64,000 bases of DNA from an uncultured Nitrospiraceae bacterium (GTDB lineage Bacteria > Nitrospirota > Thermodesulfovibrionia > Thermodesulfovibrionales > SM23-35): the NCBI GenBank assembly GCA_963727775.1, contig CAVSHB010000002.1, positions 211,599-275,598 on the forward strand. Reading direction: 5' to 3'. A program made the position numbers and the translations under genes. The notes beneath the pieces are model-generated. The model had not been told where the DNA came from, did not search any database, and saw nothing but the letters and a program-made list of their open reading frames with translations. Each line of letters begins with the position of its first letter. The first letter of the stretch is position 1. Positions 48,445 to 64,000 of the stretch are shown piece by piece.

Positions 48445-48813
48445 TTGGTAAAGAGATGCATGCACTGTGGGCGGTATTTCACGCCTGATAAACGGATCGG
48501 AGCGAGGCAGAAAGTCTGTCAGCGAAAGCAATGCAAGCGGGCAAGAAAGAACCAGTCCCAGCAGCGGTGGCGCCAAAATAATCCTGAGTATTTCAATAAC
48601 CTGTATCTCGACTATGTCAAACCCTGGCGGCAGCGACGCAAAGAGCTACATGTGTCTCCCTTGCCGCGACAAATGATAAAAGACGAGATACCCCCTTCAA
48701 AGCCTTTACAGGAACTGGTTTTGCTGATACCGGGTGGCATTAAAGGGATGATAAAAGACGAGATACGACTGCGAAGGCTTGATAGTCATACGTTTGCGGC
48801 CTATGGGCCATGA
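48445..48813 (+). CDS. Extra ORF inside the IS21-family element (zinc-ribbon-like, basic)
   Basis: 122 aa. CMHCGRYF...VCQRKQCKRARKNQSQQRWRQNNPEY. Contains MIKDEI twice, encoded by 19-bp direct repeats. Confidence 0.45.
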   Translation: MVKRCMHCGRYFTPDKRIGARQKVCQRKQCKRARKNQSQQRWRQNNPEYFNNLYLDYVKPWRQRRKELHVSPLPRQMIKDEIPPSKPLQELVLLIPGGIKGMIKDEIRLRRLDSHTFAAYGP

Positions 48814-48888
48814 TAAAAGACGAAATGGACTCGTAATCGGCGCTGAGGTAAACTGGATCATCACATCAGGGAAGGAGATGATCCATCA

Positions 48889-50301
48889 ATGCAAGAATCG
48901 CTTCAAAACCGGGCGCGGCACCTATATCAGGTTGAAGGGTTGAGCCTGAATCAGGTAGCGACGAAGCTGGGCATATCGAGAAAAAAGGTTACCCGCCTCA
49001 TTCGGCAAGACGACACCAGGAGAAGATCCTCCGGTAACATCCTGGCGCCCTATGCGCGGTTAATTCAGCAGTGGTACACGGAATATCCGTTTCTGCAGGC
49101 CATACAGGTAATGGAGCGGCTGAAGGGCTACGGGTATGAGGGAGGGTATACGGCGGTGAAGGATTACACGCTCCCATTAAGAAAGAAGCGGAAGGGCAAC
49201 TCCTTCCATGCGCTGGAGTTTCTTCCAGGGGAAGAATCGCAGGTTGATTGGATGCAGAGGAGCATGCCTTTCGGGGTAGTCTACGGGTTCGGCTACATCC
49301 TGTCCTATTCGCGGTACCTTTACGCTCACTTCTATCTGAGGAGCTCTATGGAGTTTTTCCTGGACGGCCATATTGAGGCCTTCAAAGAAATAGGAGGTGT
49401 CGCCAACAGACATGCTTATGACAATCTCAAGTCCGTAGTCATAAAGAGAAAACCGGAGATAACTTACAATGCTCGTTTTTTGGACTTTGCACGGCACTAT
49501 AATTTCTCTATCCGTGCCTGCAATCCTGGCAAGCCTAATGAGAAAGGCAGGGTTGAGCGGGTCATCAGAGACATTGAAAGCTTCCTCGTCATCAATACCT
49601 TCGCCGATATCGACGATCTTAATAAAAGATTCGGCCTCTGGCGCATACAGAGAAATGCCAGGATTCACCGATCCACGGGAATGCCTCCTGTTGAGGCGTT
49701 AAAGCAGGAGAGACTCATAGCTCTCCCCCAAATCCATTACCTGCCTTACAGACAGGAGCCGGCATCCATCAACAAGACGTGCTTTGTGGAGTTCGACACC
49801 AACCGCTACTCAGTGCCATCCCAGTACGGAGATATGCCCTGCGACATCTTTGGGTATCCTCAGCACATAGAAATAGCGGTGCATGGCAGAAAGATAGCGA
49901 CGCACAAACGGGTATTCGACAGAAAACAAAAGATAGAACATCCTTCTCACCGCGAGAAACTTCTCAATATCACTCCCCACTATAAATACAAAAGGATGCA
50001 CCAGCTTCTGAAGTCCATGGACAAAAACATCGAACACTTCCTCAACCGCGCTGAACAAGAGGGACAGGATCCTCTTGAGGTTGCTTACGAACTGTTCAAA
50101 CTTCTTAAAGGCATAGCCAGGGAGACACTGATATCGGCGGTCAAGGCCGCCATAAGCATCGATACCTATAGAGTGACCTATATCCAGGGGCTTCTGGGTC
50201 CGGCGGGCAATCAGGACAATCCCGTGCATCCCCAGAACCCGGGGCTGTTACATATCTCATATGAAGGGAGGCAACTGAGCGATTATGATGAACTTATCTG
50301 A
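48889..50301 (+). CDS. istA: IS21-family transposase IstA
   Basis: 470 aa with an N-terminal HTH (LSLNQVATKLGISRKKV), a DDE core (QVDW...HAYDNLKS...KPNEKGRVER) and typical size. Confidence 0.9.
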   Translation: MQESLQNRARHLYQVEGLSLNQVATKLGISRKKVTRLIRQDDTRRRSSGNILAPYARLIQQWYTEYPFLQAIQVMERLKGYGYEGGYTAVKDYTLPLRKKRKGNSFHALEFLPGEESQVDWMQRSMPFGVVYGFGYILSYSRYLYAHFYLRSSMEFFLDGHIEAFKEIGGVANRHAYDNLKSVVIKRKPEITYNARFLDFARHYNFSIRACNPGKPNEKGRVERVIRDIESFLVINTFADIDDLNKRFGLWRIQRNARIHRSTGMPPVEALKQERLIALPQIHYLPYRQEPASINKTCFVEFDTNRYSVPSQYGDMPCDIFGYPQHIEIAVHGRKIATHKRVFDRKQKIEHPSHREKLLNITPHYKYKRMHQLLKSMDKNIEHFLNRAEQEGQDPLEVAYELFKLLKGIARETLISAVKAAISIDTYRVTYIQGLLGPAGNQDNPVHPQNPGLLHISYEGRQLSDYDELI

Positions 50302-50962
50302 GCTGTGGAGGCACTTCAGGCTCCTTGCGGATCTTGAAGCTCTTTCAAAAGAACAAAAGGAGTTTATGTTGAAGTTCCTCACCGAGGAGTATCATCGAAA
50401 GGAGTTAAAAAGGATCCAGTACCTCATGAACATGTCCGGCATCAAGAGAACAAAGATCCTCGATGACTTCGACTGGAAATATAATCCAAAGATACCAAGG
50501 GACAAGATCATAGAATACATGAACACCCAGTGGCTTAAGAAACCCAGCAACCTTGTGCTCATAGGCCCGGCCGGTGTCGGTAAAACCCATGTCGCAACCG
50601 CACTGTGCCATGATGCCCTTACCAAAGGCTGTCAGACGGTCTTTCTTACCTTGTTTGACCTCACCGCCAAAATGGCGAAGGCCAAGAGCATCTACAGCTT
50701 CATCGAATACCACGCGCGGGCAGCCGTTTGGTGTCTGGATGAGATCGGCTATGTGATCCCGAGCAAAGAACAGGCAGACTGCATCTTCCAGATAATCTCA
50801 AAAAGGGCGGAAGTGGGCACGACCATCGTCACCACCAACCTTGTACCGTCAAACTGGGGGAAGGTGTTTGATACCGTGACTGCATCGGCGATTCTTGATC
50901 GGCTCAGCATGAACGGAAAGTTCATCACCTTCGAAGGAAGGTCCTATAGAAATAGGCAGTAA
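50285..50962 (+). CDS. istB: IS21-family helper ATPase IstB
   Basis: 225 aa. Walker A GPAGVGKTH and Walker B VWCLDEIGY. Overlaps the istA stop. Confidence 0.9.
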   Translation: MMNLSELWRHFRLLADLEALSKEQKEFMLKFLTEEYHRKELKRIQYLMNMSGIKRTKILDDFDWKYNPKIPRDKIIEYMNTQWLKKPSNLVLIGPAGVGKTHVATALCHDALTKGCQTVFLTLFDLTAKMAKAKSIYSFIEYHARAAVWCLDEIGYVIPSKEQADCIFQIISKRAEVGTTIVTTNLVPSNWGKVFDTVTASAILDRLSMNGKFITFEGRSYRNRQ

Positions 50963-51123
50963 GCTGGGTAGAATAATAACGAAAGTTCCGAATCAGGGTT
51001 ACAACTGATTAGAGATAACTCGCCTCGGCGCAGGGCGTTCCACGCTGGATTGCGCCCTGACCAGCTACAGCAGGCATCCGCCGCCGCCATATTCGGTTCC
51101 TTTCGAGCGGCGCCCACATAAGG

Positions 51124-51459
51124 CTCTGGCTTAGAAAAAGAAAACATCAAAGCGAGTATCTATTCCCCGGTCTACAGCATAGACATTTAGGGTACACTCA
51201 AGCCCGCAATATTTTTGTGAAGTATATATGTGCTGCAGGGCTGCAGCATAAAGGTTACACGATCCACAGCATGAGACATACCTTTGCGAGTGAACTGCTG
51301 AACGCGGGCATGCGCCTGGAATGTCTCCAGCTCTTGTTGGGCCATCGCGATATAGAGATGACCCGGCGGTATGCTCGCCTTACCGATAAAAGCCGGGAGG
51401 AGGAGTACTTCCGTGCCATGGCGATTATCGAGCAAGGAGGCATTGATGGAGCCTACTGA
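51124..51459 (+). pseudogene. Tyrosine recombinase 1, 3' part
   Basis: In frame with 47602-48279 after removal of the IS and one TAAGG. LWLRKRKHQSEYLFPG...GYTIHSMRHTFASELLNAGMRLECLQLLLGHRDIEMTRRYARL contains HxxR, H and the catalytic Y. Confidence 0.85.
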
Positions 51460-52378
51460 GCTGATTGCGAGATACCGGAGATTTCTGAAGCGGAGGAACT
51501 ATTCGGTGCACACCGTGAAAAACTACGTCAATATCCTTGGTCATTTCAGTGCCTGGCTGCGGATTCCTATAGAGCGGGCAACGTCTAAAGAAACGGACGC
51601 CTATATGGACCATCTCTTGAGAAGGAGGAAGAAACCAAAGACCATCAATTGTCATTTCGGCTGCATCCATACCTTTTATGATTATCTTATAGAAGAGGAG
51701 AGAATGCCTATTGCCAACCCCGTCAAAAAGAAATACAGGCTTCGGTTACCGCGGCCGCTGCCCAAACATCTCAGAGACCAGCAGGTTGCAGCACTCTTCA
51801 ACGAAATCAGCGATACCAGAGATCGGGCCATGTTCATGCTAATGCTCAGATGCGGTCTGCGGGTTGAAGAGGTTGCGCGACTGACAGCAGATGCGATAGA
51901 GTATCGCAGCAGACAGCTTTATGTCTTCAATGGGAAAGGCAGCAAGGACAGAGTTGTCTATCTCAGCGATGACGCTCTGAGTACCTTAAAAACTTATATG
52001 GATAAACGTAGATGGTCGAAGGAGAAAAGGTTGTTCTTAGTGCAAAAGGGGCCGCTTAGGGGGAAGCCGATATCAGTTCGCGGCATTCAAAAGAGGATCG
52101 AACACTATGCACAGAGAGCGGGGATAGCGGTATCCTGTCATCACTTGAGGCACACTATGGCAACACAGTTATTGAATGCAGATGCCGATCTCGTTACCAT
52201 ACAGGATTTACTGGGCCACAGCCGGATCACTACAACGCAGTGCTATTGTAGAGTCTCCAATCTCAAAGTGCAGCGGGACTACTATAAAGCCATTAACGTT
52301 GTACTGCAAAGGACACAGCCAATAAGAGATGATAGCTTTGAGTGGGACAAAAAAGGGATAATAGACAACAGCATATAA
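51446..52378 (+). CDS. Tyrosine recombinase 2 (XerC/D-like), intact
   Basis: 310 aa from the ATG after AAGGAGG. It overlaps the recombinase-1 stop by 14 nt. YSVHTVKNYVNILGHF..., RDRAMFMLMLRCGLRVEEVARL, HHLRHTMATQLL, LLGHSRITTTQCYCRV. Confidence 0.88.
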   Translation: MEPTELIARYRRFLKRRNYSVHTVKNYVNILGHFSAWLRIPIERATSKETDAYMDHLLRRRKKPKTINCHFGCIHTFYDYLIEEERMPIANPVKKKYRLRLPRPLPKHLRDQQVAALFNEISDTRDRAMFMLMLRCGLRVEEVARLTADAIEYRSRQLYVFNGKGSKDRVVYLSDDALSTLKTYMDKRRWSKEKRLFLVQKGPLRGKPISVRGIQKRIEHYAQRAGIAVSCHHLRHTMATQLLNADADLVTIQDLLGHSRITTTQCYCRVSNLKVQRDYYKAINVVLQRTQPIRDDSFEWDKKGIIDNSI

Positions 52379-52443
52379 CCAACTGAAACTAAAAGAAAAA
52401 GTAGGTTTTGTTACGTATAGCAGGAAGTAATTGAGAGAGATTA

Positions 52444-52701
52444 CTAATCCATTTTCCAGGCTACATATAGAAAGACAGCGAAACAAATTGCCGATATAAT
52501 CAAGCCCGTGCATGAAAGACCTAATGACGCATTATTCCAAATAAAAGACGTTACTGAAAGAACTAAACCAGTGCCCGTACCTAATGAACAGATAAAACAA
52601 AGGATTAATTTTGAATCCTGAGCAAAACTGCGTTTTATAACCTCTAAGAACCCTTTTTTGAGAGATGAGATATATCCCAATATATAGGCTTCATCAATCA
52701 C
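52444..52701 (-). CDS. Small hypothetical membrane protein
   Basis: 85 aa with two hydrophobic segments. Its start overlaps the stop of 52701-52943. Confidence 0.4.
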   Translation of the reverse strand: MIDEAYILGYISSLKKGFLEVIKRSFAQDSKLILCFICSLGTGTGLVLSVTSFIWNNASLGLSCTGLIISAICFAVFLYVAWKMD

Positions 52702-52943
52702 TATTTTCTCAATTTCTTAGCAATATATACTCGGAGTTTGCACTGACAAAAAAAGATACCGCCAAAATGGAGAGAGAATTTACATTGCAATGGGTCCGCT
52801 ATTAGGCAAGCGACAAACGATTCTAACCCAACATCTCTTGCTTTACAGAGATTCTTCAGACCGGATGTATAACATGAAAATTCTTTTGGGCATTTCAGTC
52901 CGTCAATCATTTCCTCTATATGTTCTTGAATAGCCTTTTCCAT
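52701..52943 (-). CDS. Small Cys-rich hypothetical protein
   Basis: 80 aa with seven Cys (CPKEFSC, LCKA, VACL, QCKF, FFCQC). Promoter-like module A lies upstream. Confidence 0.4.
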   Translation of the reverse strand: MEKAIQEHIEEMIDGLKCPKEFSCYTSGLKNLCKARDVGLESFVACLIADPLQCKFSLHFGGIFFCQCKLRVYIAKKLRK

Positions 52944-53120
52944 GATTTACTTTATCAAAGTGGTGACGATAAAGATGTCAGCGGTGGGCTATTTTTTGTG
53001 TAGGACTTTCAGATTTTTTTTGTGGGCATTGTCCTACATCAAGCAATATATGAAAAAGCACTGATTCCAGAGCATATGTGGTGAACTGCCCCACACATGT
53101 TGAGCGCTAACGATTACCGG

Positions 53121-53184
53121 TTGTACAGCACAGAATTATTACATTTCTTAAAGGTGCGGCTTTCAGGAAGGAAGCTTGCGCATG
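53121..53184 (-). promoter_or_regulatory. Promoter-like repeat module, copy A (upstream of 52701-52943)
   Basis: Minus-strand reading: GCGCAAGCTTCCTTCCTGAAAGCCGCACCTTTAAGAAATGTAATAATTCTGTGCTGTACAA. Confidence 0.5.
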
Positions 53185-53225
53185 GGCTCTCCTTGCCCCA
53201 TGTCAACGGGTACCCCCTCGTCACT

Positions 53226-54876
53226 CTTTATCCTAAAAAAAGCAGTTAGAGATCATGCCACACCAGTTTGAGGGAGCAATTTCCCTGAATTTATGTTCAA
53301 AGGGCCGATGATTTTTCTAAAAGCATGCATTGCTACAATCCTCATCCGCTCAGCGATATTCAACTGCTCCGCAGTGGTCCTAATATCCCCGAGGAACAGT
53401 GATAGTCGTAACAATGCTCCCCGCACCTTTTCAGCCTTTGCATGAGGACTGGTAATAGTCAGAAAAGTCTGTCCCCCATGTTTTGTCTGTTTCGCAACTG
53501 CGTGTAACAGCAACGGTCTGCTCGTTATTGCCTCATGATGTTTATTTGGATTGGCCAGGCGCACAAACAGCGACCACCAGTTATATACAAGAGCTACCAT
53601 GCGACTAATCATGCGGCATCGCTTCAAATCCTTTGTCGTATATCCGCCCCAGCCCCACTGATTCTTTAACTCGTCAAAGATATTTTCACTGTCTGCACGA
53701 TCCCGGTAATGCTGTGCAATACTTGATACCTCATCAGAAAGAGAAGTCACCAGCACCGTGTACTCATACTTAGCCACTCCCCCTTGTGTCTCGATGAAAC
53801 TCATCTCCATTTGATCTTTCCCTTTTTTCTGCAAAAGAATATCCCCAGGTATAGGTCGGCGCAGCACGATCACCCGGCGACTACGGCTCCACCCAAATAA
53901 CTTCAGCTCTGACTCCATTCCATAGTATCCGGCACCGGCTTTTACCCATTCTTCCATCTCAAACATTCTCTCGATCAATCTTTTTACATTCTTCGTAATC
54001 CTCAGCTTTGTGACATAATGTATACTACGTTTTTCTGCCTCTGATAACACTCCCTCTACTCCAAACGCTATATCTCCACGGATGAAGGCCGGCCGATTAT
54101 CCCGGGGAATACTCTCTACCAATTCCCATAATCCAGCCGTGCTGTGACTCGATGCGGTCTCATTGCCCGCCTTCACTTCTACCTTTAACGCTAATCGTGT
54201 GTTTGCCATAAAATAACTGTGGTAACTGTGTGAGGGCCGCCCAGGTTTCTTAGGATTATATCCCACAACTGCCCCCTCTTGTTTGCCATACAGACACTTT
54301 ACCGTCGTGTCCGTATCAAGTATCCAGGAGGGGCCTGATACTGCCGATAATACAGGCATCGTGCAGCGTGCAAGCTCTGATTCAAGCCATTGTATCCCAG
54401 TCCCTTCTTCTATCTGCAATAAGGCCCGACGCGCCGCATCTTCACTGATTATCTTATCCATCCCCAATAACTCGGGATTCACTCCATCACTTCGTATCGC
54501 TGCGATATGTGCATATCGCTTATGTCCCGCAAGTATCGAAAGCATGAGAGTGCCTAACACGTTTCTCTTCTTCGGCGCATTCGGGCTGCTATAGGAGAGG
54601 GGACACTCTTTTACAAAGGAATCAAACAACCCGCTGACTTTCAGAAATTCTATGAAAAATGGCAACTGCCCCAATGGGGTAACAGCTGCATCAGGGTCCC
54701 ATTCTACGTGTATCTTCCCCGCATATGTATCAATTCCTACTGAGTTGCTCCTTGCTATCGCACGCCGTTTTGCCTCACCCATTAGGTGAACCCTCCTGCC
54801 ACTCTTTTTCCGTTTATTATTGCATGCTTCGCCCCTTATGTGTATCCCGTACCGCTTTTTTTAGGTTTATAGACCT
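53226..54876 (-). mobile_element. IS1380-like (IS4 superfamily) element, ends approximate
   Basis: Inverted matches TCTTTATCCTAAAAAAAGCAGT (left) versus the reverse complement of the right end TCTATAAACCTAAAAAAAGCGGT. Encloses a 509-aa transposase gene. Confidence 0.55.
53253..54782 (-). CDS. DDE transposase distantly related to the IS1380-family copies
   Basis: 509 aa. DTDTTVKCLYGKQEGAVVGYNPKKPGRPSHSYHSYF parallels FDSTVLERYGKQEGVKRGYNPKKKGRGSHSPLL of the other two transposases. Confidence 0.75.
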   Translation of the reverse strand: MGEAKRRAIARSNSVGIDTYAGKIHVEWDPDAAVTPLGQLPFFIEFLKVSGLFDSFVKECPLSYSSPNAPKKRNVLGTLMLSILAGHKRYAHIAAIRSDGVNPELLGMDKIISEDAARRALLQIEEGTGIQWLESELARCTMPVLSAVSGPSWILDTDTTVKCLYGKQEGAVVGYNPKKPGRPSHSYHSYFMANTRLALKVEVKAGNETASSHSTAGLWELVESIPRDNRPAFIRGDIAFGVEGVLSEAEKRSIHYVTKLRITKNVKRLIERMFEMEEWVKAGAGYYGMESELKLFGWSRSRRVIVLRRPIPGDILLQKKGKDQMEMSFIETQGGVAKYEYTVLVTSLSDEVSSIAQHYRDRADSENIFDELKNQWGWGGYTTKDLKRCRMISRMVALVYNWWSLFVRLANPNKHHEAITSRPLLLHAVAKQTKHGGQTFLTITSPHAKAEKVRGALLRLSLFLGDIRTTAEQLNIAERMRIVAMHAFRKIIGPLNINSGKLLPQTGVA

Positions 54877-54914
54877 TACTCCATATTCCGGTTGGTATCA
54901 CATACATACGGCAC

Positions 54915-55469
54915 TCATTGCCACCGGATAATGCGGTCTTCGTAGTCTATCTGGAAGCGGGAGCTTTTGAGCATATCATTGCCGAGCAGTCCGTCGTAAC
55001 TTCCGACCGCGCTAACCGGCACTTGGACACTACTAACCCGCCTCGGGCCGATGCTGATCGAATCGAGAACCACCAAACCAGCCAAGCTGAACCCTCCGAC
55101 CCCTTGTATCAGCGAAAGGTTGGCGTCTTTAGGGTTTATTTCCAGCTGCCTGGCAATATTCGGACTGATGAGCGATGTAGCAGCGCCAGTGTCAAACACG
55201 AACTGACCTTTGACCTCACGCCCCTTGTAGCTGACTGTGACCGGAACCACGATATGATTGTCTACAAGTTTGAAAGATGTCTCGGTCAGACTGTCACTTT
55301 CCTGAGCGTCGCGGGACACTATTTGAGCCTTATCTCCCGGATCGTCGGTAAATCTGACGTTGCCGTTATCGTCAATGTACTTATATATATCGGCGGCAGA
55401 CGGTGAGTAGAAAATGAGAATAACAACCGCAACGGTAAGATAGCCTACCTGTGAATGCGCAAGTTTCAT
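54915..55469 (-). CDS. DUF4124-like N-terminus + retropepsin-like (clan AA) aspartic protease domain protein
   Basis: 184 aa. DIYKYIDDNGNVRFTDDP is DUF4124-type. FVFDTGAATSLIS contains the D-T-G-A active-site motif. The C-terminal GLLGNDMLK fits bacterial retropepsin-like proteases. Confidence 0.7.
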   Translation of the reverse strand: MKLAHSQVGYLTVAVVILIFYSPSAADIYKYIDDNGNVRFTDDPGDKAQIVSRDAQESDSLTETSFKLVDNHIVVPVTVSYKGREVKGQFVFDTGAATSLISPNIARQLEINPKDANLSLIQGVGGFSLAGLVVLDSISIGPRRVSSVQVPVSAVGSYDGLLGNDMLKSSRFQIDYEDRIIRWQ

Positions 55470-55534
55470 AATGTGTTCTACTCCCTATCGAGTCCTGTGT
55501 TGTCGCGAAAATCTTTCCATTGATAATTTCCGAG

Positions 55535-55595
55535 TGTACTATGCAGAATTATATCAAGTTTCAAACATGTTTGCTTCAGGAAGAAGGGTTGCACT
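55535..55595 (-). promoter_or_regulatory. Promoter-like repeat module, copy B (upstream of 54915-55469)
   Basis: Minus-strand reading: CTTCTTCCTGAAGCAAACATGTTTGAAACTTGATATAATTCTGCATAGTACA. Confidence 0.55.
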
Positions 55596-55616
55596 TGTTC
55601 TTGTAATTATGCATGT

Positions 55617-56126
55617 TTAATAATTCGAAACACCCCATCCCCAAAGTATTGCCGGTATTTCAACTGCAAGGAGACCTCCAATGAAGGAGAACGCATTTGC
55701 AACAAAGCTGTATGCCATGCTTCTCAAAAGTGATGGCGCAGCTTCAGGTTGTCGTGTAAGTCTTGGTGATCGAAGAAGGTAAAAAACCGCTATCCCCTCG
55801 GCTAAGGTGACTGCGATTTCGCCGACAATTCCCACAATCGTCACGCCAACGAAGTTTTGCATTGCAACTATTGCAGTCATAAGAAGGATAAATGTGACGG
55901 TTGTAATCACTGTCCACACCCCTACAAATCGCCAGAAGTAGGGATTTGTTCCCTTTCCCAATCGCGCCACAATGACCCCTTCCATCGGCAGTAGGATGGG
56001 TACAACAACAAGTGGAACCGGGTTCAAGATTATTGGATCAGCGAAAGCGATGGACGGGCAAAGCATACTTGCCACCAGCAATATAAAAAGATCCCTAAGG
56101 TTGTTTTTTGATTCGTGATTATTCAT
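55617..56126 (-). CDS. Hypothetical polytopic membrane protein
   Basis: 169 aa with about five hydrophobic segments and no recognisable family. Confidence 0.5.
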   Translation of the reverse strand: MNNHESKNNLRDLFILLVASMLCPSIAFADPIILNPVPLVVVPILLPMEGVIVARLGKGTNPYFWRFVGVWTVITTVTFILLMTAIVAMQNFVGVTIVGIVGEIAVTLAEGIAVFYLLRSPRLTRQPEAAPSLLRSMAYSFVANAFSFIGGLLAVEIPAILWGWGVSNY

Positions 56127-56168
56127 CCTTCCATCTACGGCTACAAAGTCGTCCTTTCGGTTATAACC

Positions 56169-56213
56169 TGTACAATTATATCATTCTCATGTGGTCTCAG
56201 CTTCGGGAGGCAG
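56169..56213 (-). promoter_or_regulatory. Promoter-like repeat module, copy C (shortened; upstream of 55617-56126)
   Basis: Minus-strand reading: CTGCCTCCCGAAGCTGAGACCACATGAGAATGATATAATTGTACA. Confidence 0.45.
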
Positions 56214-56435
56214 TCTTACCCGTGGTAACTTTCGAGAATAACCGCATGTCTGTATTCTTCTTTCGAGCGAAAAGTTTGCTGAGAGCTCATCTGGCAGCAA
56301 ATTGGAAAATGCCTACAGAGTATAATAGTTTGGTAAAGACGATGACGACATTACATATTTTTTTATCCGTCCTTCTGGCTACTGACCCTTGGTCAGTCAG
56401 TTCCATTCGGGTTTCGAAAACATAAGACGAATGTA

Positions 56436-57281
56436 TTGATTATGACAAGAAGACTTAAGTTTCTACTAATCATCATGATATTGTTGGGCATATATATTGG
56501 CCGGAGCTATTGGCCATTTAAAGAGCAAATAAAGATAGAGACGGCTCATTACACTATCTATTCTACAGCGACGCAGCAGCAAACTATTCTTATCGGAGAA
56601 GCAAGTGAAAGCTTGTACGCTGCCTATACCGATTTTTTCAAAGATATGATAGATGCAAAAGAGCACAAGGGACGGCTAAGGATGAGGCTTTATAAGGATA
56701 GAGATGAGTTTAAGGCACACAACTGGAGTGCTCCCTGGGCAGAAGCATTCTATCACAACCCGTATTGTTATGCCTACTATCCCGAAAGTGAGGCCAATCC
56801 ATATCACTGGATGATACACGAGGGAACCCATCAATTAAACCGGGAAGTTGCCCATTTTAAGGTGCCCGAATGGATTGATGAAGGCTTAGCAACATATTTC
56901 GGTTCAAGCAAAATAAGAAATGGTAGATTGCAACCCGGTGAAATCGATGTGAACACGTATCCTATATGGATACTACAAACTATTTCCTTGACGGGCAACC
57001 TTCAGAAGGATATCAACAATAACAAGATAATTCCTCTTCGCGCCCTAATTACAGGGACAGGAGGGCCTAATATCATCAGGCATTTTAATCTATACTACGT
57101 CCATTATTGGAGCCTGACACACTTTTTATTTCACTATACGAACGGAAAATATTCTGATGGCTATAAAAGTTTGATCCGCGCAGGCGGCACATTGGAAGAA
57201 TTTGAGAAGAGAATCGGATCGGTAGATCGGATACAGAACGAATGGTATGAGTACTTGCGACAGAGCGTGTCAGAAGTGTAG
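56436..57281 (+). CDS. Putative HExxH-type metallopeptidase-like protein (DUF1570-like)
   Basis: 281 aa with an N-terminal TM/signal segment (LKFLLIIMILLGIYIG). WMIHEGTHQLNREV contains HExxH. Family recall is uncertain. Confidence 0.45.
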   Translation: MIMTRRLKFLLIIMILLGIYIGRSYWPFKEQIKIETAHYTIYSTATQQQTILIGEASESLYAAYTDFFKDMIDAKEHKGRLRMRLYKDRDEFKAHNWSAPWAEAFYHNPYCYAYYPESEANPYHWMIHEGTHQLNREVAHFKVPEWIDEGLATYFGSSKIRNGRLQPGEIDVNTYPIWILQTISLTGNLQKDINNNKIIPLRALITGTGGPNIIRHFNLYYVHYWSLTHFLFHYTNGKYSDGYKSLIRAGGTLEEFEKRIGSVDRIQNEWYEYLRQSVSEV

Positions 57282-57375
57282 AAAAAATGAAAGAGCCCTA
57301 ACAGTTAAGTCATGCCAAATATTAACTTAAGGTTGACATCAGTATAGAAGCGCGAGAGTCTTGTCTGTTCCCACT

Positions 57376-57432
57376 TGTACTGAACATGATTATATCAGGT
57401 TTCGGTGCCGTTGACTTCAACAAGGAAGGATT
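57376..57432 (-). promoter_or_regulatory. Promoter-like repeat module, copy D (between convergent gene ends; no obvious downstream gene)
   Basis: Minus-strand reading: ATCCTTCCTTGTTGAAGTCAACGGCACCGAAACCTGATATAATCATGTTCAGTACA. Confidence 0.45.
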
Positions 57433-57532
57433 ATTGCCTATCAGGACTCTCTGGAATACTACGTTTCTTTCACCCCGTAAGGCGCATAGCTTTTTTATCA
57501 AAGAGACCTGATAACCTTTAAAAACAGAAAGA

Positions 57533-58516
57533 TCAGAAAACATTCACTTTGAATGTCACTACTTTTGCAGGCGGCACATCCTTCTCCCAAGGTCTTATAT
57601 ATCTAAAGTTGATTGCTGTTTTACCCTTCCCGGTAGCCTCGAAGAGCCAAACTTCTTTACCTCCTGCACCGATAAGCCCGGTTTGCGATTTCCTATATTT
57701 GTTGCGCACTAACCTGATAATTGTGCTCTCTTTTGGGCTGATCATCTCCCAGTGATATCCTGTGGTGACGTTTGAATCAAGAACAAGCGTAAAATGTTGA
57801 CCAGGGGCTACTTCAATCTCCAAGCTGGGATTGCTGAACTCAAGTATATTCGATGCGACATTAATCACTTTTGCTCCGACAAAAGTACCGGAACTTTCGA
57901 AATCAAAGGCGATCAGTACAGTACCGAGAAGTTCACAAGCGTGACAGCCATTCTGGAGGCGGTAGGCAGCAACAAACCTCTTTCCCTTGTTTAAAAGATC
58001 TTCGCCCTTCACACAAGGGGCGTCATATCTGTCACCAGGCCAGAGATTCACTTTAGGAAAATTGTGGGCTATTTGTTCATACAGTTTGTGCTTCGTTAGG
58101 TCCACATTCTTTAAAATGTCATTATCGTCGATGTCGATGACCGACGGGTTTCCGTTTACGAGATAACATCCGTAGTTCTCATTCGCCCTAAATGGATAAA
58201 AAACTTGAGCGATATCCACCGCTCCGTCCCTTTGGAAGGCTGTTATATAGGCCGTATTTCCTATGTGTTTGGTAAAGACGATAGCCTCGCATGGGGCCCC
58301 TGAATCTTTCATCACGGTGACGAAACAAGCCCCAAAGTCCTTCACCGCTTCCATTGAACAGCGCTCAAGCACTTGTTGCCTAAAGGAACTACCGGGATTC
58401 CAGACTACTTCCGGACCTATCTGCTGATTTTCGGCTGAGGCGACACCAGTCAGGAAGCATATTATTATAAATATCTGGGCAATCAAACTCTTTATAGGCT
58501 CCCCTTTTTCTGACAT
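57533..58516 (-). CDS. Secreted protein with a C-terminal chagasin/ICP (inhibitor I42) domain
   Basis: 327 aa with a signal peptide. The C-terminal ~105 aa carry the three chagasin-family loops: NVTTGYHW, GAGGKEVWLF and YIRPWE. Confidence 0.62.
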   Translation of the reverse strand: MSEKGEPIKSLIAQIFIIICFLTGVASAENQQIGPEVVWNPGSSFRQQVLERCSMEAVKDFGACFVTVMKDSGAPCEAIVFTKHIGNTAYITAFQRDGAVDIAQVFYPFRANENYGCYLVNGNPSVIDIDDNDILKNVDLTKHKLYEQIAHNFPKVNLWPGDRYDAPCVKGEDLLNKGKRFVAAYRLQNGCHACELLGTVLIAFDFESSGTFVGAKVINVASNILEFSNPSLEIEVAPGQHFTLVLDSNVTTGYHWEMISPKESTIIRLVRNKYRKSQTGLIGAGGKEVWLFEATGKGKTAINFRYIRPWEKDVPPAKVVTFKVNVF

Positions 58517-58603
58517 CGCTTTAAGAATCTAAACCTCCCCCAAAAGACACTTCAAAACTCATTTCTCATTTTTTAAATCCAGCAAGACATTTCACCCATT
58601 CCA

Positions 58604-58668
58604 GTTGAACTGCGCACAATCATAGCACCTTTGAATGGTGTTACCTACAGGAAGGAAGCTTGCGCATA
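58604..58668 (-). promoter_or_regulatory. Promoter-like repeat module, copy E (upstream of 57533-58516)
   Basis: Minus-strand reading: GCGCAAGCTTCCTTCCTGTAGGTAACACCATTCAAAGGTGCTATGATTGTGCGCAGTTCAAC. Confidence 0.5.
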
Positions 58669-58818
58669 TACCTTCATCTTTTTTCACAATGCGTCTTTCG
58701 CCCCGTAATAAAAAGGGTATTTTTACGAGCGGATTCCCCGCTGGAACACCTCGGTTAGATGTAGTCATCATCGCCCAATGTCAGGGCTGACCCCATTCCC
58801 CTGTTACTTACAACAAGC

Positions 58819-60840
58819 TTATGAATCTGTTGATTTCTTGATATCAGTCTTGCCCTCAGAATCAATCTTCATACCAGTGAGTGCAATAGCCTGCGTAAGA
58901 ACTGTCGCGAGCCCTTCAGATGCACCGCCACTTCCGATCGTAAGAATATCAGGCATAATCTTAATCTTACCTGCAGAGATATGTTTTGCGAGCTCGATAG
59001 CCATAATAGCCTGTGGCCCGATGGCTGTCTTCTGCTTTTCGTAGGCTTCTGCGGTAGCCGTACCGATTGATTCGATTGCCCTGGCATCACCTTCGCCCTT
59101 CAATTTTGCGCTTTCCGCATTACCTTCGGCAAGTGTAACTGTTTCTCTTTTCTTCTGGTCGGCAACTTTGACGGCGATCTCGGCCCGAACAAGTTCCGGC
59201 TGTTGGTCGGCAGTGGCCTTTGTCTTTTCCATCTCAATTCTTGTAACTTCAGCCTTCTGCTGTTCCTTGTATTGTTCAGTCTGTTGCTGTGCAATAATTT
59301 TCTTTGTCTGTGTATCCATCAGCTCCTGGGGAAGTTTAATTTGACAAATGAGGACCGACACGCACTCAACATGATATTTTTCAAGTTCCAGCCGGGCCCT
59401 TGTTTCAGCCTTTGTCTGTTCTTCTTGTCTGTCCTGCATAAAGTTCATGGCTGAAGTGGTAGAAGCCTGATTTCTGAAGCTGGAATCAATCATTGGGTGA
59501 ATAACGTGAAGAATGAGATTGTCAATCGAACCGACTTTCGCCACCATATAGGGAGCTTGGTCCGGTCTGACTCTTACAACTACCTTAACGGATACTCCAA
59601 TAGGGAACCCGTCTTTTGAAATAACACTCAATGGGTCAAACCTTGTCTCTTTTGCATCATCCCAGTCTATCGTTATGTTTGTTGTGTCGATGATATATGG
59701 CATAAAGGCTAATCTGTTAAGATAGTATTTGCCGGGGCCGGCCACTTCTTCCTGGATGCCCCGATATCCTTTGGGAACCACATATTTCTCTTTGCCTTCT
59801 TCTTCGGTCGCCCCCATTTGAGTTGAGCCGAGTCTTCTCTTCATTTCAGATGTTGGCTCTTCACCCACATTTGAAACGACAACTGCAACCTGTCCACGCT
59901 CAACAACTGCAACGTCATCAAACGCAACATTAAACATTAACGGGTTTATATAATATGTACCGGGCTTTAGAACATCAAGCTGAGGTCCACGCTGGCCGCC
60001 GCCTTTAAGGAATGAATTGGCATCCTGAAAATCGGAGTGTCCGGCGACTGACTTGGCAACATATTCTTTGTCAGGAAGCGGATCACCATCCTTGGCGATA
60101 ACCAAACCGACTTTTGCAGACTCAATCACTGCGGCTGGCTCAGTTGCCACCTGGAATAAATGAGTGTTGATACGATAAGTCCCTGGGAGAAGGATATCGA
60201 TCTGTGGGCCTTTTTGCCCGCCATTCGCAAGAAACTTTTCACCAGCTTCAAAGTTATGATGGTCAGGCACACTTACTGCCAACAGTCTACCGGCAGCTAT
60301 AGGATTGCCATCCTGCGATGTAACAACTCCCACCTGACCTTTTTCGATAACAACTGCCTGAGCAATTGATACCTTAAAGAGGTATGGATTTATTCTGTAT
60401 TTACCAGGCGGGAGGATGTCAATCTGCGGACCTTTCTGCCCCCCGTTTTGTAAGAACGCCTCCCCATCCTGAAAAGAATTATGACCCTGTACCACCTTTG
60501 CAAATATTTTACCGGGAGGGATTGCGCTGCCATCGACTGATTCGATAAGACCGACCTGCCCGTCCATAATCTCTACAAACTCGCTCTTTTTTGCAGTATA
60601 AATAAACGGAATAAGAAAATGCATTCCCGGCCCCAGCGTCCTTGCCTGAATCCCGACTTCGTTGTTCATGGCAACGACCCTGCCCTGTGGCATCTTCCTG
60701 CCAAACCATCTCCGTTCAATAAGGGCAATCTCTTTACCACCGACAATAACAACTGATTGATATGCCAGGATTAAGGCGATAAATCCTATAATTATTCCCC
60801 CTACTGAAAGCACGCCGATCAAATGCGAAAGAATTTCCAT
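58819..60840 (-). CDS. Flotillin-like SPFH/band-7 family membrane protein with a triplicated N-terminal module
   Basis: 673 aa with an N-terminal TM segment. There are three ~85-aa repeats containing GGQKGPQIDILPPGKYRINPYLF, GGQKGPQIDILLPGTYRINTHLF and GGQRGPQLDVLKPGTYYINPLMF. These are followed by an SPFH core and an E/A/K-rich flotillin coiled coil. Confidence 0.75.
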   Translation of the reverse strand: MEILSHLIGVLSVGGIIIGFIALILAYQSVVIVGGKEIALIERRWFGRKMPQGRVVAMNNEVGIQARTLGPGMHFLIPFIYTAKKSEFVEIMDGQVGLIESVDGSAIPPGKIFAKVVQGHNSFQDGEAFLQNGGQKGPQIDILPPGKYRINPYLFKVSIAQAVVIEKGQVGVVTSQDGNPIAAGRLLAVSVPDHHNFEAGEKFLANGGQKGPQIDILLPGTYRINTHLFQVATEPAAVIESAKVGLVIAKDGDPLPDKEYVAKSVAGHSDFQDANSFLKGGGQRGPQLDVLKPGTYYINPLMFNVAFDDVAVVERGQVAVVVSNVGEEPTSEMKRRLGSTQMGATEEEGKEKYVVPKGYRGIQEEVAGPGKYYLNRLAFMPYIIDTTNITIDWDDAKETRFDPLSVISKDGFPIGVSVKVVVRVRPDQAPYMVAKVGSIDNLILHVIHPMIDSSFRNQASTTSAMNFMQDRQEEQTKAETRARLELEKYHVECVSVLICQIKLPQELMDTQTKKIIAQQQTEQYKEQQKAEVTRIEMEKTKATADQQPELVRAEIAVKVADQKKRETVTLAEGNAESAKLKGEGDARAIESIGTATAEAYEKQKTAIGPQAIMAIELAKHISAGKIKIMPDILTIGSGGASEGLATVLTQAIALTGMKIDSEGKTDIKKSTDS

Positions 60841-60917
60841 GTAACCTCCATTTTTATTGGTTTCCTTTAGCTTTGTTGCTTATCATTAATTTATCATGAT
60901 TCATATTTAATTCCGGT

Positions 60918-60972
60918 TGTACTGAGCATAATTATATCAGGTTTCCCTACAGTGGGTTTCAGGAAGAAGCAA
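60918..60972 (-). promoter_or_regulatory. Promoter-like repeat module, copy F (upstream of 58819-60840)
   Basis: Minus-strand reading: CTTCTTCCTGAAACCCACTGTAGGGAAACCTGATATAATTATGCTCAGTACA. Confidence 0.55.
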
Positions 60973-60980
60973 AGAATCTA

Positions 60981-61163
60981 TTATTTGAGCCCGATCTTTT
61001 TCCAAAACATAAGTCCAGGGCAAATTCCTGTTATCCCTGCAAGGGTAAATAAGCCAACTAGAATATAAAGGAACCAATGAACCTTATCAAAACCTGTTAA
61101 CCATATCCCTATAAAAATCAAGAAAGCGACTGTTATAAATTGTGCTCTCAGAGCTGAAGACAT
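60981..61163 (-). CDS. DUF2892/YgaP-like small inner-membrane protein
   Basis: 60 aa with two TM segments. LAGITGICPGLMFW resembles the DUF2892 C-terminal motif. Confidence 0.5.
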   Translation of the reverse strand: MSSALRAQFITVAFLIFIGIWLTGFDKVHWFLYILVGLFTLAGITGICPGLMFWKKIGLK

Positions 61164-61190
61164 AGTAAGCCTCCTTTGTTATTTTCCTTT

Positions 61191-61245
61191 TGTACTCAAA
61201 ACAATTATATCAGGTCTTCGAGTAGTGGACTACAGCTTGCTATAT
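61191..61245 (-). promoter_or_regulatory. Promoter-like repeat module, copy G (upstream of 60981-61163; distal box diverged)
   Basis: Minus-strand reading: GCAAGCTGTAGTCCACTACTCGAAGACCTGATATAATTGTTTTGAGTACA. Confidence 0.45.
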
Positions 61246-61322
61246 TGTAGTTAATGATGAGATCGATATATCTTCCAGGTAAGAATTGTTTATCCGGCAA
61301 AGGAAAGAAGGAGGAGATATTT

Positions 61323-61797
61323 ATGAAAGGGTTACGGACGAAAAGAGTAAACATGATAAAGGAAGGGGCATTGATAGTAGCGATAGACATTGGTATGGCA
61401 AGTAACCATGGGTGCTGTGTGGCAGCAGACGGGAGGAGCACCAAGACATTCAAGTTTGATAATACAAGAGAAGGACTTGATAGATTGTGGAACATGGTAC
61501 TTGCGAGCAAAACCAGATTTCAATGCAATGAGGTCATTATAGGATATGAGTCAACCGGACCTTATGGAGAGCCGTTGGTTCACTATCTCAAGCAGAAACC
61601 AGCAACGATCGTACAAGTAAACCCACTGCACACGAAGAGGATGAGAGAGATCAATGACAACTCTCCATTAAAGACTGATCGTAAGGATCCCCGGGTAATC
61701 GCGGATGTCATACGGATAGGGCACGCCTTAAGCGTCGTGGTCCCAGAAGGTGCTGCCGCCTATTTGAGAAGAATAAATAATGCACGGGAGAGACATA
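61323..61797 (+). pseudogene. IS110-family transposase, 5' part (DEDD domain), split by IS1380 copy 2
   Basis: Start MKGLRTKRVNMIKEGALIVAIDIGMASNHG after GGAGGAG. GYESTGPYGEPLVHYL, VNPLHTKRMREI, KTDRKDPRVIADV. Homology is broken at 61797. Confidence 0.85.
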
Positions 61798-61801
61798 TTA
61801 A

Positions 61802-63421
61802 CCCGAAAAATGCGTTTGCTATAGGCATACCTATAGAGTCAAGCCTATCAAGGCATTGGCTGATTTGTCGATATAAAAGCTAATACTGATGCTGTTTCTT
61901 GTTCCACCTCCTGAAAATTATGTTCTTTTTATCTAAATGCAGTGCAATTACCAAAACTGGGGGGAAAGTATTGTCCCACGCGGTTAAAGAGGTAGCGCAG
62001 TTTTGATCGTACTTTCTGCGTAAAGACAGAAATCCGCAATACAGGTTTCCTTCCATCCCATCCTAATTGGGCTGGAAGGACAAGATACTTGTACCGTAAG
62101 GTTTTCAAACGTTCTGTCTTTTCTTTTTGACCGAGTATCTGATGCCTGAACAGGACAAACAGATTGTAGATGAATACCCGAATAAGCATAGCCGCCTCCG
62201 TTGAGTAGAAATACTTCATCGAGAACCCGCCGAGTGCAAAATCCTCTTTCAGTTCCTTGATGGTATTCTCATCGTTCGCCCTATGCCTGCATTGCTTCCA
62301 TACCTCATATGTAGAATCATGTGAATTGGTTATCCATACGCTATAACGATAATGCCCTGTATCAAACTCATCTCCGAAAAGAGACAACTCTTTTCCCATC
62401 GCGTGCGGTCTCTTCTTGACATCCTGGCGCACTGCAATAAACCTCCTGTCGATTATCCACTCTACATGCTGGAAGAAGAACTCAGTGATCCATATCCCTT
62501 CTTCTACCTGTGCCCAGTTTTGTTGTGCGTAGATTATCCTCTGCAGCGGACGATATAGGCGAGCAGCTATGATATATACTAATTCTCTCTTCTCAAGCAG
62601 TTCGATGAACTCCCTAAGATAAAATCCACTGTCTGCAATAATGCCCTTGATATCGATATGACCGTTGATCCTCTGCCATGTGGATTCAAAAAATCCAATA
62701 ATGTTGTTCCATGACATCACGTTGCCGGGGCGGTTCCAAAGATTTATCACATACTTGTTTCTGTTAAGAAATGCCAGAAGCGGGCTGTGGCTACCACGGC
62801 CCTTCTTCTTCGGGTTATATCCCCTCTTGACTCCCTCCTGTTTTCCGTATCGCTCAAGGACTGTAGAATCGAACGTCAACCAGTCCTCTTTGAGCTCTTT
62901 CCAGGGGATCAATCTCTTCAAGTATCCCCATAATCCCTCCGACATCTCTTCCACTTCCTTCAGTTTTCTGATCTTCCTGAAAAGCCTGCCCAATGTCGTC
63001 GAGGCGATAGGAAGCCTCTTCACTGCAAAAAGATCGGTGAAAATCTCCTGCCAACCAAGATAAAGTAGATGAGAAAACCTGCTGCCTCCCGCATAGATCA
63101 GAAGGATGTATGCCAATACCTTGCTGTATATCCCCATTCCATTGGGTGAACTCTCATGGATCGGAATCACCTCTTGCAAAATTCCTCTCAATTTGATCTT
63201 TTCAAAAAATGCAGCCAATAAACTGAATCCCCCATATGCCGTCATCTTCTTCTCCGTAAATCCAATCCTTACTTTATTTATTTCGATCTTTGTGCTACAT
63301 TTTGACTGCATATTTCTATTCTCCTTTCGTTTAGAGTTGATGGTCGGGTAAACCTATTGATTCTAATACGAAAGGAGAATTTCTTCGGGGATATTATTTT
63401 AGGTCAACTGCACTTTTTGGG
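61802..63421 (-). mobile_element. IS1380-family insertion sequence, copy 2 (inside the IS110 transposase gene)
   Basis: Same termini as copy 1 (CCCGAAAAATGC... / ...GCACTTTTTGGG). TTAA flanks at 61798-61801 and 63422-63425. Confidence 0.85.
61929..63311 (-). CDS. IS1380-family DDE transposase (copy 2)
   Basis: 460 aa. Residues 1-241 are identical to copy 1. The C-terminal 219 aa differ at many positions. Confidence 0.88.
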   Translation of the reverse strand: MQSKCSTKIEINKVRIGFTEKKMTAYGGFSLLAAFFEKIKLRGILQEVIPIHESSPNGMGIYSKVLAYILLIYAGGSRFSHLLYLGWQEIFTDLFAVKRLPIASTTLGRLFRKIRKLKEVEEMSEGLWGYLKRLIPWKELKEDWLTFDSTVLERYGKQEGVKRGYNPKKKGRGSHSPLLAFLNRNKYVINLWNRPGNVMSWNNIIGFFESTWQRINGHIDIKGIIADSGFYLREFIELLEKRELVYIIAARLYRPLQRIIYAQQNWAQVEEGIWITEFFFQHVEWIIDRRFIAVRQDVKKRPHAMGKELSLFGDEFDTGHYRYSVWITNSHDSTYEVWKQCRHRANDENTIKELKEDFALGGFSMKYFYSTEAAMLIRVFIYNLFVLFRHQILGQKEKTERLKTLRYKYLVLPAQLGWDGRKPVLRISVFTQKVRSKLRYLFNRVGQYFPPSFGNCTAFR

Positions 63422-63425
63422 TTAA

Positions 63426-64000
63426 AGAGCGGACCGCTCTTCTCAACCAATTACGGCAGTTTGTGTTTCTCATATTCCCAGAATTTGGCCGAATAATAAA
63501 GACGATATTCTGCAAAACATCCTTACATATACTCAAGAAATATACGACACCGGCAAAGGTATGCAGCGTAAATATAGAGAAACTTGGAGGGGAAATGAGG
63601 AGATGTAGCATGGGCAAATTCGGGGTAGAACATGCTACGGCGCTGATCAATTATGCAAAGACCACCATCGGTATTCAAGAAGGGTTGGACGGATTAGTTA
63701 TGGATATACAGCACGCCCTCGTCCAGCTGGAGATGGTCGATAGTCTCATAGCGGAACTGGAGCACGAGATGGAGACAACCCTACAGCGCATACCCTACAG
63801 TCGCAAACTCCTGTCAATCAAAGGGCTCGGGATAGTAACGGTAGCAGGGCTTATTGGTGAGATAGGCGACTTTACAAAGTTTAAAACGCAGTCTGAGATA
63901 GCGAAGCTTGCCGGTCTTGACCTGTACGAAGTAAGCTCCGGGAAAAGACAAGGACAGAGGAGGATATCAAAGAGGGGCAGAAGCCTGTTACGGAAAATAC
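63426..64000 (+). pseudogene. IS110-family transposase, 3' part (runs off the window end)
   Basis: My translation in the restored frame is KERTALLNQLRQFVFLIFPEF...LLSIKGLGIVTVAGLIGEIGDFTKFKTQSEIAKLAGLDLYEVSSGKRQGQRRISKRGRSLLRKI, which is the Transposase_20 domain. It has no stop inside the window, so it is absent from the ORF track. Confidence 0.85.

Follow-up and report, generated by a model that had tools for sequence, protein, structure and literature searches.

A putative portable promoter and cassette-like gene units in the Thermodesulfovibrionales

The motif TGnTATAAT is an extended -10 promoter element. Putative mobile promoters have been described as homologous promoter regions of 50-100 nt, with at least 80% identity, that stand before non-homologous genes (Matus-Garcia, Nijveen & van Passel 2012, PMC3488235). 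In the IS110 family of insertion sequences, recombination takes place at a conserved CT core and a sigma-70 promoter is rebuilt across that core (Durrant et al. 2024, PMC11208160). Here we analyse a repeated module of about 70 bp that shares features with both, found in a 64-kb stretch of DNA from an uncultured Nitrospiraceae bacterium (phylum Nitrospirota, class Thermodesulfovibrionia, order Thermodesulfovibrionales; contig CAVSHB010000002.1, positions 211,599 to 275,598; "the window" denotes this whole stretch). Each repeat would be the 5' end of a small transcription unit, with a sigma-70-type extended -10 element (TGATATAAT) lacking a -35 hexamer, an invariant CTTCCTG(W)A box and a conserved start region (AGTACAAnnGGAA), and would head very diverse genes, mostly one per unit, in same-strand arrays. 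The units would at the same time be cassettes running from box to box, and we lean, if narrowly, towards this combination of promoter and cassette.

Seven copies of the module (c1 to c7) lie on the minus strand of the window between 53113 and 61237, six of them strong and one (c3) degenerate. The module consists of CTTCCTG(W)A, 18 nt, TGATATAAT, 7 nt and AGTACAAnnGGAA. When anchored on the TG of the -10 element, the six strong copies align without gaps, with 20 nt from the end of CTTCCTG to TG and 8 nt from TATAAT to GTACA. An earlier sequence-only reading had recognised this architecture and placed all seven copies at the right coordinates and on the right strand. The spacings that it gave as ranges (17-21 and 7-9 nt) are invariant in the six strong copies, the conserved block extends further 3', to AGTACAAnnGGAA, and the seven copies are not of equal quality. 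From high to low coordinates, c7 (61183..61237) has TGATATAAT at 61212-61204, a predicted +1 at 61196 and a predicted leader of 33 nt, and where the CTTCCTG box should be it has one end of an IS110-family element (...tatagcaag-CT-G joined to tagtcc). In c6 (60909..60979) the box is at 60966-60960 and TGATATAAT at 60939-60931, with a predicted +1 at 60923 and a leader of 83 nt. The next copy, c5 (58599..58668), has its box at 58654-58648, a weak -10 element (TGCTATGAT), GTTCA in place of GTACA, a predicted +1 at 58611 and a leader of 95 nt. A box variant, CTTGTTG, precedes a perfect TGATATAAT in c4 (57368..57434; predicted +1 at 57381). The degenerate c3 (56172..56222) combines a correctly spaced box, CCTCCCG, and a perfect TGATATAAT with a distance of 1 nt, not 8, from TATAAT to GTACA. 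Finally, c2 (55526..55596) has its box at 55583-55577, TGATATAAT at 55556-55548, a predicted +1 at 55540 and a leader of 71 nt, and c1 (53113..53182) has its box at 53170-53164, an imperfect -10 element (TGTAATAAT), a predicted +1 at 53127 and a leader of 184 nt.

The exact TGATATAAT occurs six times in the window where 0.84 occurrences are expected, a number reached in none of 100 shuffles, and all but one are minus-strand occurrences at 55548-61212 (in c2, c3, c4, c6 and c7). With at most two mismatches, the 13-mer CTTCCTTCCTGAA has seven matches in the window (2.46 expected), four of them inside modules, and a repeat finder independently picked out the modules as direct-repeat families D1-D3. 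A hidden Markov model trained only on 110 foreign modules, i.e., those of other genomes and metagenomes, recovered all seven copies (c6, E = 5e-15; c2, 5e-13; c4, 2e-12; c7, 3e-12; c5, 2e-9; c1, 1e-7; c3, 1.2e-3) and no eighth site below E = 1 in the 64 kb.

Compared over 63 columns, the window copies have identities of 52-73%, and in the 14 unconstrained columns they are 37% alike, close to the 31-32% found between genomes. They are thus not recent duplicates, and their likeness reflects constraint. This speaks against the alternative offered by the sequence-only reading, a non-coding repeat that spread locally, akin to miniature inverted-repeat transposable elements (MITEs) or repetitive extragenic palindromes (REPs). 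The modules are multi-copy and intergenic, as such repeats would be, and they receive an insertion of the IS110 family, which is known to target REP-type repeats. However, the repeat finder detected no inverted repeats, terminal or internal, within or around the window modules, the copies are strictly oriented towards genes, and the three intergenic regions containing c6, c2 and c5, analysed as DNA, show no fold on either strand (z from +0.76 to -1.83). We consider a MITE- or REP-like origin highly improbable. Because these three regions fold no better than shuffled sequences, an attC-like or structured-RNA nature is excluded together with a REP-like one. Likewise, a search of Rfam over window positions 52000-62000 gave no matches at E up to 1. 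A CsrA-like leader (GUACAA..GGA) was also considered and rejected, given an unsuitable spacing and no hairpin.

The module is not restricted to this locus. When 185,579 species-representative genomes were scanned with a strict pattern, 38 stretches matched, 12 of which hold the full three-box module. Ten of these are in metagenome-assembled genomes (MAGs) of Thermodesulfovibrionales/Nitrospirota, including Dissulfurispiraceae and Ca. Sulfobium, and the other two are in MAGs labelled Acidobacteriota and Bacteroidales (by label only, with binning unchecked). The rest of the 38 stretches (SAR11, response regulators) were rejected as coincidences in coding sequence. A second scan, of metagenomes, used the pattern TGnTATAAT..TK...AGTACAA..GG, which does not demand the box, and matched at least 120 contigs; among the matches listed, nearly all have CTTCCTG(W)A at the same spacing. 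These contigs are redundant and carry no taxonomic labels; open reading frames (ORFs) were called mechanically throughout. Altogether, related genomes and sediment metagenomes yielded no fewer than about 170 sites with the module. The sequence-only reading had tied its proposal to conservation in related genomes, and the module does recur in Thermodesulfovibrionales genomes as well as in metagenomes. From its distribution, we read it as a clade-wide portable element of the Thermodesulfovibrionales (Nitrospirota). Full-text searches of the literature returned no account of the motif strings, nor of promoter motifs in this clade.

Like putative mobile promoters, the modules are homologous promoter regions that precede non-homologous genes both within and between genomes. 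Unlike them, they fall below 80% identity, their likeness is limited to functional blocks, and each module travels with its gene, box to box, in tandem arrays. The many small co-directional genes with their own promoters, rich in information beyond the -35 and -10 elements, also recall the early promoter arrays of phage T4 and phage morons. In contrast to these, the module has no match in 2.9 million viral contigs, and its cargo includes genes that we take, by eye, to be of housekeeping type (HU, GalU and a cold-shock protein). A phage origin was rejected given the absence of matches in the viral contigs.

Several observations indicate that the modules very probably function as promoters. TG stands one base before a TATAAT-like hexamer, and TGATATAAT agrees with the extended -10 element at nine of nine positions. 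No -35 hexamer is present at 16-18 bp, and none of the 17 promoter-like sites called by a consensus scanner matches a module. Transcription would start about 7 nt past TATAAT, which places the CTTCCTG(W)A box at about -43 to -35 relative to the predicted start. Downstream of foreign modules, an ORF of at least 60 amino acids (aa) starts within 300 nt in 86 of 105 cases; searched in the reverse direction, 51 of the 105 have one. From the 3' end of the module to the gene start the median distance is 49 nt, and ribosome-binding sites are visible. At all 12 orthologous loci encoding DUF2892 proteins, the module lies 19-21 nt before the start codon.

The conservation of the boxes points to selection. 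Among nine DUF2892 cassettes (eight foreign ones and that of the window), identity reaches 83% in the box columns versus 61% in the other columns of the module. Although the search did not require them, the positions of the box show 74-82% conservation over 115 unique foreign modules, and an A at -19 from TG, two bases past the box, shows 82%. In 35 secondary copies found by proximity, not by pattern, the box and TGATATAAT are best kept, with TGnTATAAT near-invariant and the best conserved block, and AGTACAAnnGGAA is looser. The module boxes are thus under purifying selection across genomes. The column statistics reveal no symmetric operator and no second half-site for the box.

The module is best read, as far as sequence can tell, as an extended -10 promoter lacking a -35 hexamer that heads mostly single-gene units. 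It resembles extended -10 promoters without a -35 element, a group that includes class II activator-dependent promoters, in its perfect TGnTATAAT, the absence of a -35 hexamer at 16-18 bp, the conserved element near -40 and the gene at leader distance. It differs from them in that its box is non-palindromic (CTTCCTG(W)A) and kept at one invariant spacing, in the conservation of the first 14 bases that are predicted to be transcribed, and in that the box doubles as a rearrangement junction. Other promoter classes were considered and rejected. The promoter of the tRNA-Thr gene in the window, read by eye, is canonical (TTGCAA-18-TAGAAT), and the module is therefore a special class and not a generic promoter; a generic housekeeping promoter was ruled out by this and by 122 kb of related DNA without the module. 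Readings of heat-shock sigma-32 type or of extracytoplasmic-function sigma factor type (CCTGAA...; GAAAC-N17-AGTA) were dropped because there is no heat-shock cargo of chaperones or proteases, GAAAC is only moderately conserved and the -10 element is a perfect primary-sigma consensus.

The genes behind the modules are very diverse. Clustering the 165 downstream ORFs gave 113 groups without relation to one another; the largest, DUF2892, has 13 members. Pfam families among the cargo include DUF302, a LuxR-type solo regulator, Usp, an AAA ATPase, FIST, DUF169, a rubrerythrin-like protein and TIR, as well as RES, Nmad2, DUF2971, CZB, sCache, a metal-resistance protein and an adhesin-like protein. 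Others we assigned by eye, without a family search, and take to be a cold-shock protein, a thiol peroxidase, a methylglyoxal synthase, HU and GalU. The cargo is a mix of accessory genes and not one pathway, which makes a coherent physiological regulon doubtful. The sequence-only reading had proposed that the seven copies form an island-wide regulon. Its promoter is supported in silico as regards the extended -10 element, the missing -35 hexamer, the orientation towards gene starts and purifying selection, but a regulon private to this locus is not supported, given the clade-wide distribution of the module and the number of unrelated clusters.

Modules often come in arrays. At 33 of the 132 module-bearing loci, two or more lie within a few kilobases, and adjacent modules are on the same strand in 39 of 41 pairs, with a spacing of 250-2400 nt and typically one gene between. 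Same-strand arrays are thus common, and the arrangement in the window, where the array reaches a density of 6-7 modules per 8 kb, is the norm for the module and not a peculiarity of this island.

A plain regulon, not private to one locus, would be an alternative. The box, centred near -39, and the segment from +1 to +14 would then bind one clade-specific activator, repressor or alternative sigma factor. The three boxes are invariantly spaced and kept across genomes while the spacers drift, the -35 hexamer is missing as in class II activator-dependent promoters, and some of the cargo is stress-like (Usp and the rubrerythrin-like protein by Pfam; presumably also the cold-shock protein, thiol peroxidase and methylglyoxal synthase identified by eye). 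A LuxR-type solo regulator of about 200 aa, with a GerE helix-turn-helix and an unassigned N-terminal domain, occurs at seven of the 132 loci (L061, L100, L108, L117, L138, L158 and L159) and is itself headed by a module in several of them. It is a candidate for the cognate factor, or just a common cassette; the window has no homologue of it. Set against this, the cargo is far too mixed for one physiological regulon (TIR, RES, Nmad2, DUF2971, the adhesin and sensor domains by Pfam; by eye, presumably HU and GalU), as the many clusters among the downstream ORFs also suggest. On balance we hold a plain regulon to be rather unlikely, and the behaviour of the flanking sequences counts further against it.

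Homology between near-identical units starts and stops in an unexpected way. Seven pairs of loci match closely downstream of the module, six of them at 95-100% identity and one at 89%; traced upstream, every pair ceases to be alike at the 5' edge of CTTCCTG. The right-hand ends of the shared blocks fall inside the next box. Two loci of one complete chromosome (OY970295.1; L013 and L029) share box, promoter, a 69-aa gene and its tail, which ends in ...gatgttCTTCCTG, and then diverge. Loci L066 and L120 have 562 nt in common, ending in aacataaCTTCCT, with both junctions in boxes, and L144 and L157 share a unit of 590 nt with both ends in boxes. A plain regulon would account for such breaks if the box were the 5' limit of what selection preserves, but pairs that are 99-100% identical are too young for their flanks to have been trimmed, yet their similarity stops in the box on both sides. 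As a separate event, seen in one copy only, L029 carries an insertion of IS200/IS605 type (5450-6065) just past the stop codon of the cassette, which by eye we take to encode a TnpA-like protein of 141 aa.

The same pattern emerges from the full set of comparisons. Among 179 informative ends of blocks with at least 88% identity, 37 lie within the box ±3 nt versus 0.5% for random positions, and 78 lie within 30 nt of a box versus 2.5%. Of the 26 unique junctions between blocks at least 94% identical and unrelated flanks, about 14 are true box junctions. Left ends start no later than TCCTG and right ends extend at least to TTCCT, so the exchange point is confined to the CT of CTTC[CT]G. The cassette junctions are thus compatible with exchange at this point, the precise cut lying below the resolution of the sequences. 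Chimeric assemblies are unlikely to have produced these junctions because the shared box stretch is shorter than assembler k-mers and one of the pairs is in a finished chromosome. The DUF2892 cassette is present in at least ten contexts, including the window, where its homology to relatives stops at 60957-60960, within the box of c6. In some DUF2892 modules the box is displaced, with CTTCCT only 9 nt before TG in L120 (4285-4330) and CTTCCTC about 5 nt further upstream in L123 and L150, which suggests exchange at secondary TCCCT or TTCCT sites in the spacer.

We conclude from these comparisons that the stretches between boxes are probably discrete cassettes. A cassette would run from one box to the next (G-WA-spacer, -10, leader, gene, tail, CTTC-CT), exchange would take place inside the box, at the CT of CTTC[CT]G, and cassettes would in this way turn up in different neighbourhoods, each carrying its own -10 element and start site, with the box rebuilt at every junction. 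The sequence architecture, distribution, orientation, constraint and junction positions are observed; that the box acts as a recombination core, as a protein-binding site or as both, and how cassettes would move, we infer. A dedicated mechanism of site-specific exchange is a more tentative proposal, which we would not favour at present.

The whole module of about 70 bp could alternatively be a double-stranded att-like recombination site whose likeness to a promoter is secondary or coincidental. The junctions do fall in the box, three blocks fixed over about 60 bp would fit one protein complex, same-strand arrays resemble integron cassette arrays, and an element of the IS110 family, which rebuilds a promoter across its recombination core (PMC11208160), targets the same point. 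However, TGATATAAT is a perfect extended -10 element and is better conserved than any other block among the copies found without the pattern, and the ribosome-binding sites and start codons downstream are spaced as in typical leaders. Moreover, a lone CTTCCTG box at the end of the window array (52421..52427, minus strand), 16 nt past the last stop codon and with no -10 element behind it, points to the box by itself as the junction, with the -10 element serving expression of the cargo. We thus judge an att-like site with accidental promoter features to be improbable.

The flotillin gene in the window was compared with its orthologues. The gene (SPFH/flotillin by Pfam, 673 aa; 58819..60840, minus strand) is the cargo of c6, and its closest named relatives (93%) are from Dissulfurispiraceae. 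It forms a discrete unit of about 2.07 kb, with homology to its orthologues restricted to 60888-58803; it sets in some 35-48 nt ahead of the ATG and ceases about 16 nt past the stop codon. The neighbourhood differs in each of seven related genomes (including L039, L042, L164, L165 and L167), and only the gene in the window has a module: its seven orthologues (81-88% nucleotide identity) lack one and have unrelated upstream DNA, and the 122 kb around them contain none. The link between gene and module implied by the sequence-only reading is hence not conserved. This, too, is hard to reconcile with a plain regulon, as is the absence of modules from those 122 kb and from another 72 kb surrounding homologues of the integrase in related genomes, when 6-7 are found per 8 kb in the window array.

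The box is also the insertion point of an IS110-family element. In the window, the left end and N-terminal DEDD domain of such an element (Pfam; 61238..61883, plus strand) are inserted in the box of c7; the element is split by an IS1380-like element (61798-63425) and resumes at 63403-64000 (plus strand). The same 65-nt end precedes two different modules (c7 and positions 1-65 of L143), in both cases as ...tatagcaag-CT-G followed by WA. In L128 (1-1190), a copy with 90% identity has its opposite end fused to the CTTC-CT half of a box, as ...AG next to GAAG, and a distant relative in L089 (148-672) has a similar junction, CTG next to TA. The junctions thus show CT (AG on the other strand) at both ends, observed in different loci. 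Over about 250 nt, the right end in L128 has a significant RNA fold (z = -3.5), in which UUUUCUUCCU and CAGUUCAG flank a hairpin and resemble the two halves of CTTC-CT-GAAC targets; they may be the target guides of a bridge or seek RNA. These insertions show that the IS110-family element homes to the box; they do not establish that it moves cassettes. The distal box, which the sequence-only reading took for the binding site of a regulator, is indeed constrained, but it is also a homology breakpoint and an IS110 insertion point, which that reading had not seen. Because the homology of near-identical units starts and stops there and IS110 inserts there, CTTCCTG resembles a recombination junction no less than it resembles a regulator site.

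The comparison with IS110 and bridge-RNA recombination (Durrant et al. 2024, PMC11208160) can be taken further. The IS110 family exchanges at a CT core with a sigma-70-type promoter across it, as the module cassettes would, and the preference for conserved multi-copy intergenic targets is matched by the insertion at the module box. In contrast, the module cassettes encode no DEDD recombinase, they leave no room for a bridge RNA (leaders are as short as 33 nt), and their ends differ from those of the insertion sequence save for GCAAG beside the core. In the window, c1 and c5 have an identical 20-nt cassette tail, ATGCGCAAGCTTCCTTCCTG (53164-53183 and 58648-58667), and GCAAGC...CTTCCTG tails akin to it are found in many foreign cassettes, while the IS110 end likewise closes with GCAAG beside the core. 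The mobilisation of cassettes by an IS110-type enzyme is speculation.

Integrons invite a similar comparison. Integron cassettes, like the units described here, are mostly single-gene units in one orientation with a conserved site between them and exchange inside a short core; the same cassette is found in different neighbourhoods and the cargo is broadly accessory. Unlike in integrons, there is no IntI and no attC hairpin at the modules, the site is a duplex and promoter-like, and each cassette has its own promoter and does not rely on a common promoter Pc. A classical integron array with attC repeats could be invoked given the tandem same-strand single-gene units and a tyrosine recombinase gene that neighbours the array end; a structured leader or a small RNA may be considered alongside it. 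However, the Xer-like integrase in question (51371-52378) scores 114 bits against a cut-off of 265 bits for the integron-integrase model TIGR02249, and belongs to a separate, module-free mobile element. The lack of hairpin potential and of Rfam matches, and conservation lying mostly upstream of the predicted start, also argue against both, and we give them next to no credence. The integrase gene is the second gene of a mobile element of about 2 kb with two recombinases, found in unrelated contexts (L168-L173) without modules. The element consists of overlapping tyrosine-recombinase genes (about 334 aa and 310 aa) and its right end reads ...GTTACGTATAGCA. The window copy (47602-52420) touches with its right end the terminal box of the array, and its first recombinase gene (47602-48372) is truncated and interrupted by IS21 (IstA, 48889-50301; IstB, 50285-50962). 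A link to serine recombinases was not found either: a tblastn search with an approximate Hin query matched only window positions 39141-39527, 13 kb from the array, and nothing at any other module locus.

Some observations weigh against the combination of promoter and cassette. The attC sites of integrons, too, immediately precede the next ORF and keep one orientation, which means that a promoter is not proven by position alone. The patterns used to collect modules fixed the -10 element and AGTACAA, which inflates the apparent conservation of these two, and the redundancy of the metagenome contigs makes the junction counts partly dependent on one another. In a few cases (L136 versus L056 and L160; L026-type versus L102) homology breaks at the 5' edge of the -10 block, AAACCTGATATAAT, instead of in the box, as would also be expected if any conserved block could recombine. 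No recombinase accompanies the arrays consistently, and homologues of the IS110-family element adjoin only three modules (c7, L143 and L089), with a fourth box insertion in L128. Nor does the combination account for the fixed distance of 20 bp between box and -10 element.

The other genes of the window array are as follows. The cargo of c7 is a DUF2892/YgaP-like membrane protein of 60 aa (Pfam; 60981..61163, minus strand), and the 3' tail of this cassette enters the box of c6. Behind c5 lies a gene for a 327-aa protein with a C-terminal chagasin (I42) inhibitor domain (Pfam; 57533..58516, minus strand). No same-strand gene follows c4, which faces the 3' end of an oppositely oriented DUF1570 gene (Pfam; 56436..57281, plus strand) located between c4 and c3; either c4 would give rise to an antisense transcript of this gene or its cargo was inverted. 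A membrane protein of 169 aa without family match (55617..56126, minus strand) is the cargo of c3, and that of c2 is a 184-aa protein with DUF4124 and a retropepsin-like aspartic protease (Pfam, NCBIfam; 54915..55469, minus strand). A DDE-transposase insertion sequence with 22-nt terminal inverted repeats (Pfam; 53232..54865, minus strand) has inserted into the c2 cassette behind the protease gene, in the tail that leads to the box of c1. The array closes with the cargo of c1 (52444..52943, minus strand), a Cys-rich gene of 80 aa (52701-52943) and a membrane gene of 85 aa (52444-52701), the former with a homologue in L068 that likewise has an upstream module. The lone box at 52421-52427 marks the array end and abuts the end of the two-integrase element. 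The window is otherwise rich in mobile DNA, with two 92%-identical IS1380-like copies (61798-63425 and 16686-18314), a DDE transposase (34416-35843) and a serine recombinase/invertase homologue (39126-39740).

We can only tentatively envisage a new cassette system of the Thermodesulfovibrionales, in which units would be captured, excised and re-inserted at the CT of a CTTCCTG core that lies within a portable promoter; its enzyme may be an RNA-guided recombinase of IS110 type. If such a system exists, it would follow an integron-like logic without an integron integrase or attC, each unit bringing along a rebuilt promoter. If the modules are promoters, they would form an unusually information-rich class, with about 30 constrained positions, and would provide an expression part for a phylum with almost no genetics as well as a handle on the factor that binds them. 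If the units are cassettes, they would represent a second route, besides integrons, to arrays of accessory genes, with a joint that is a 7-bp core inside a promoter, and a natural case of an RNA-guided recombinase of the IS110 type homing to a promoter element.

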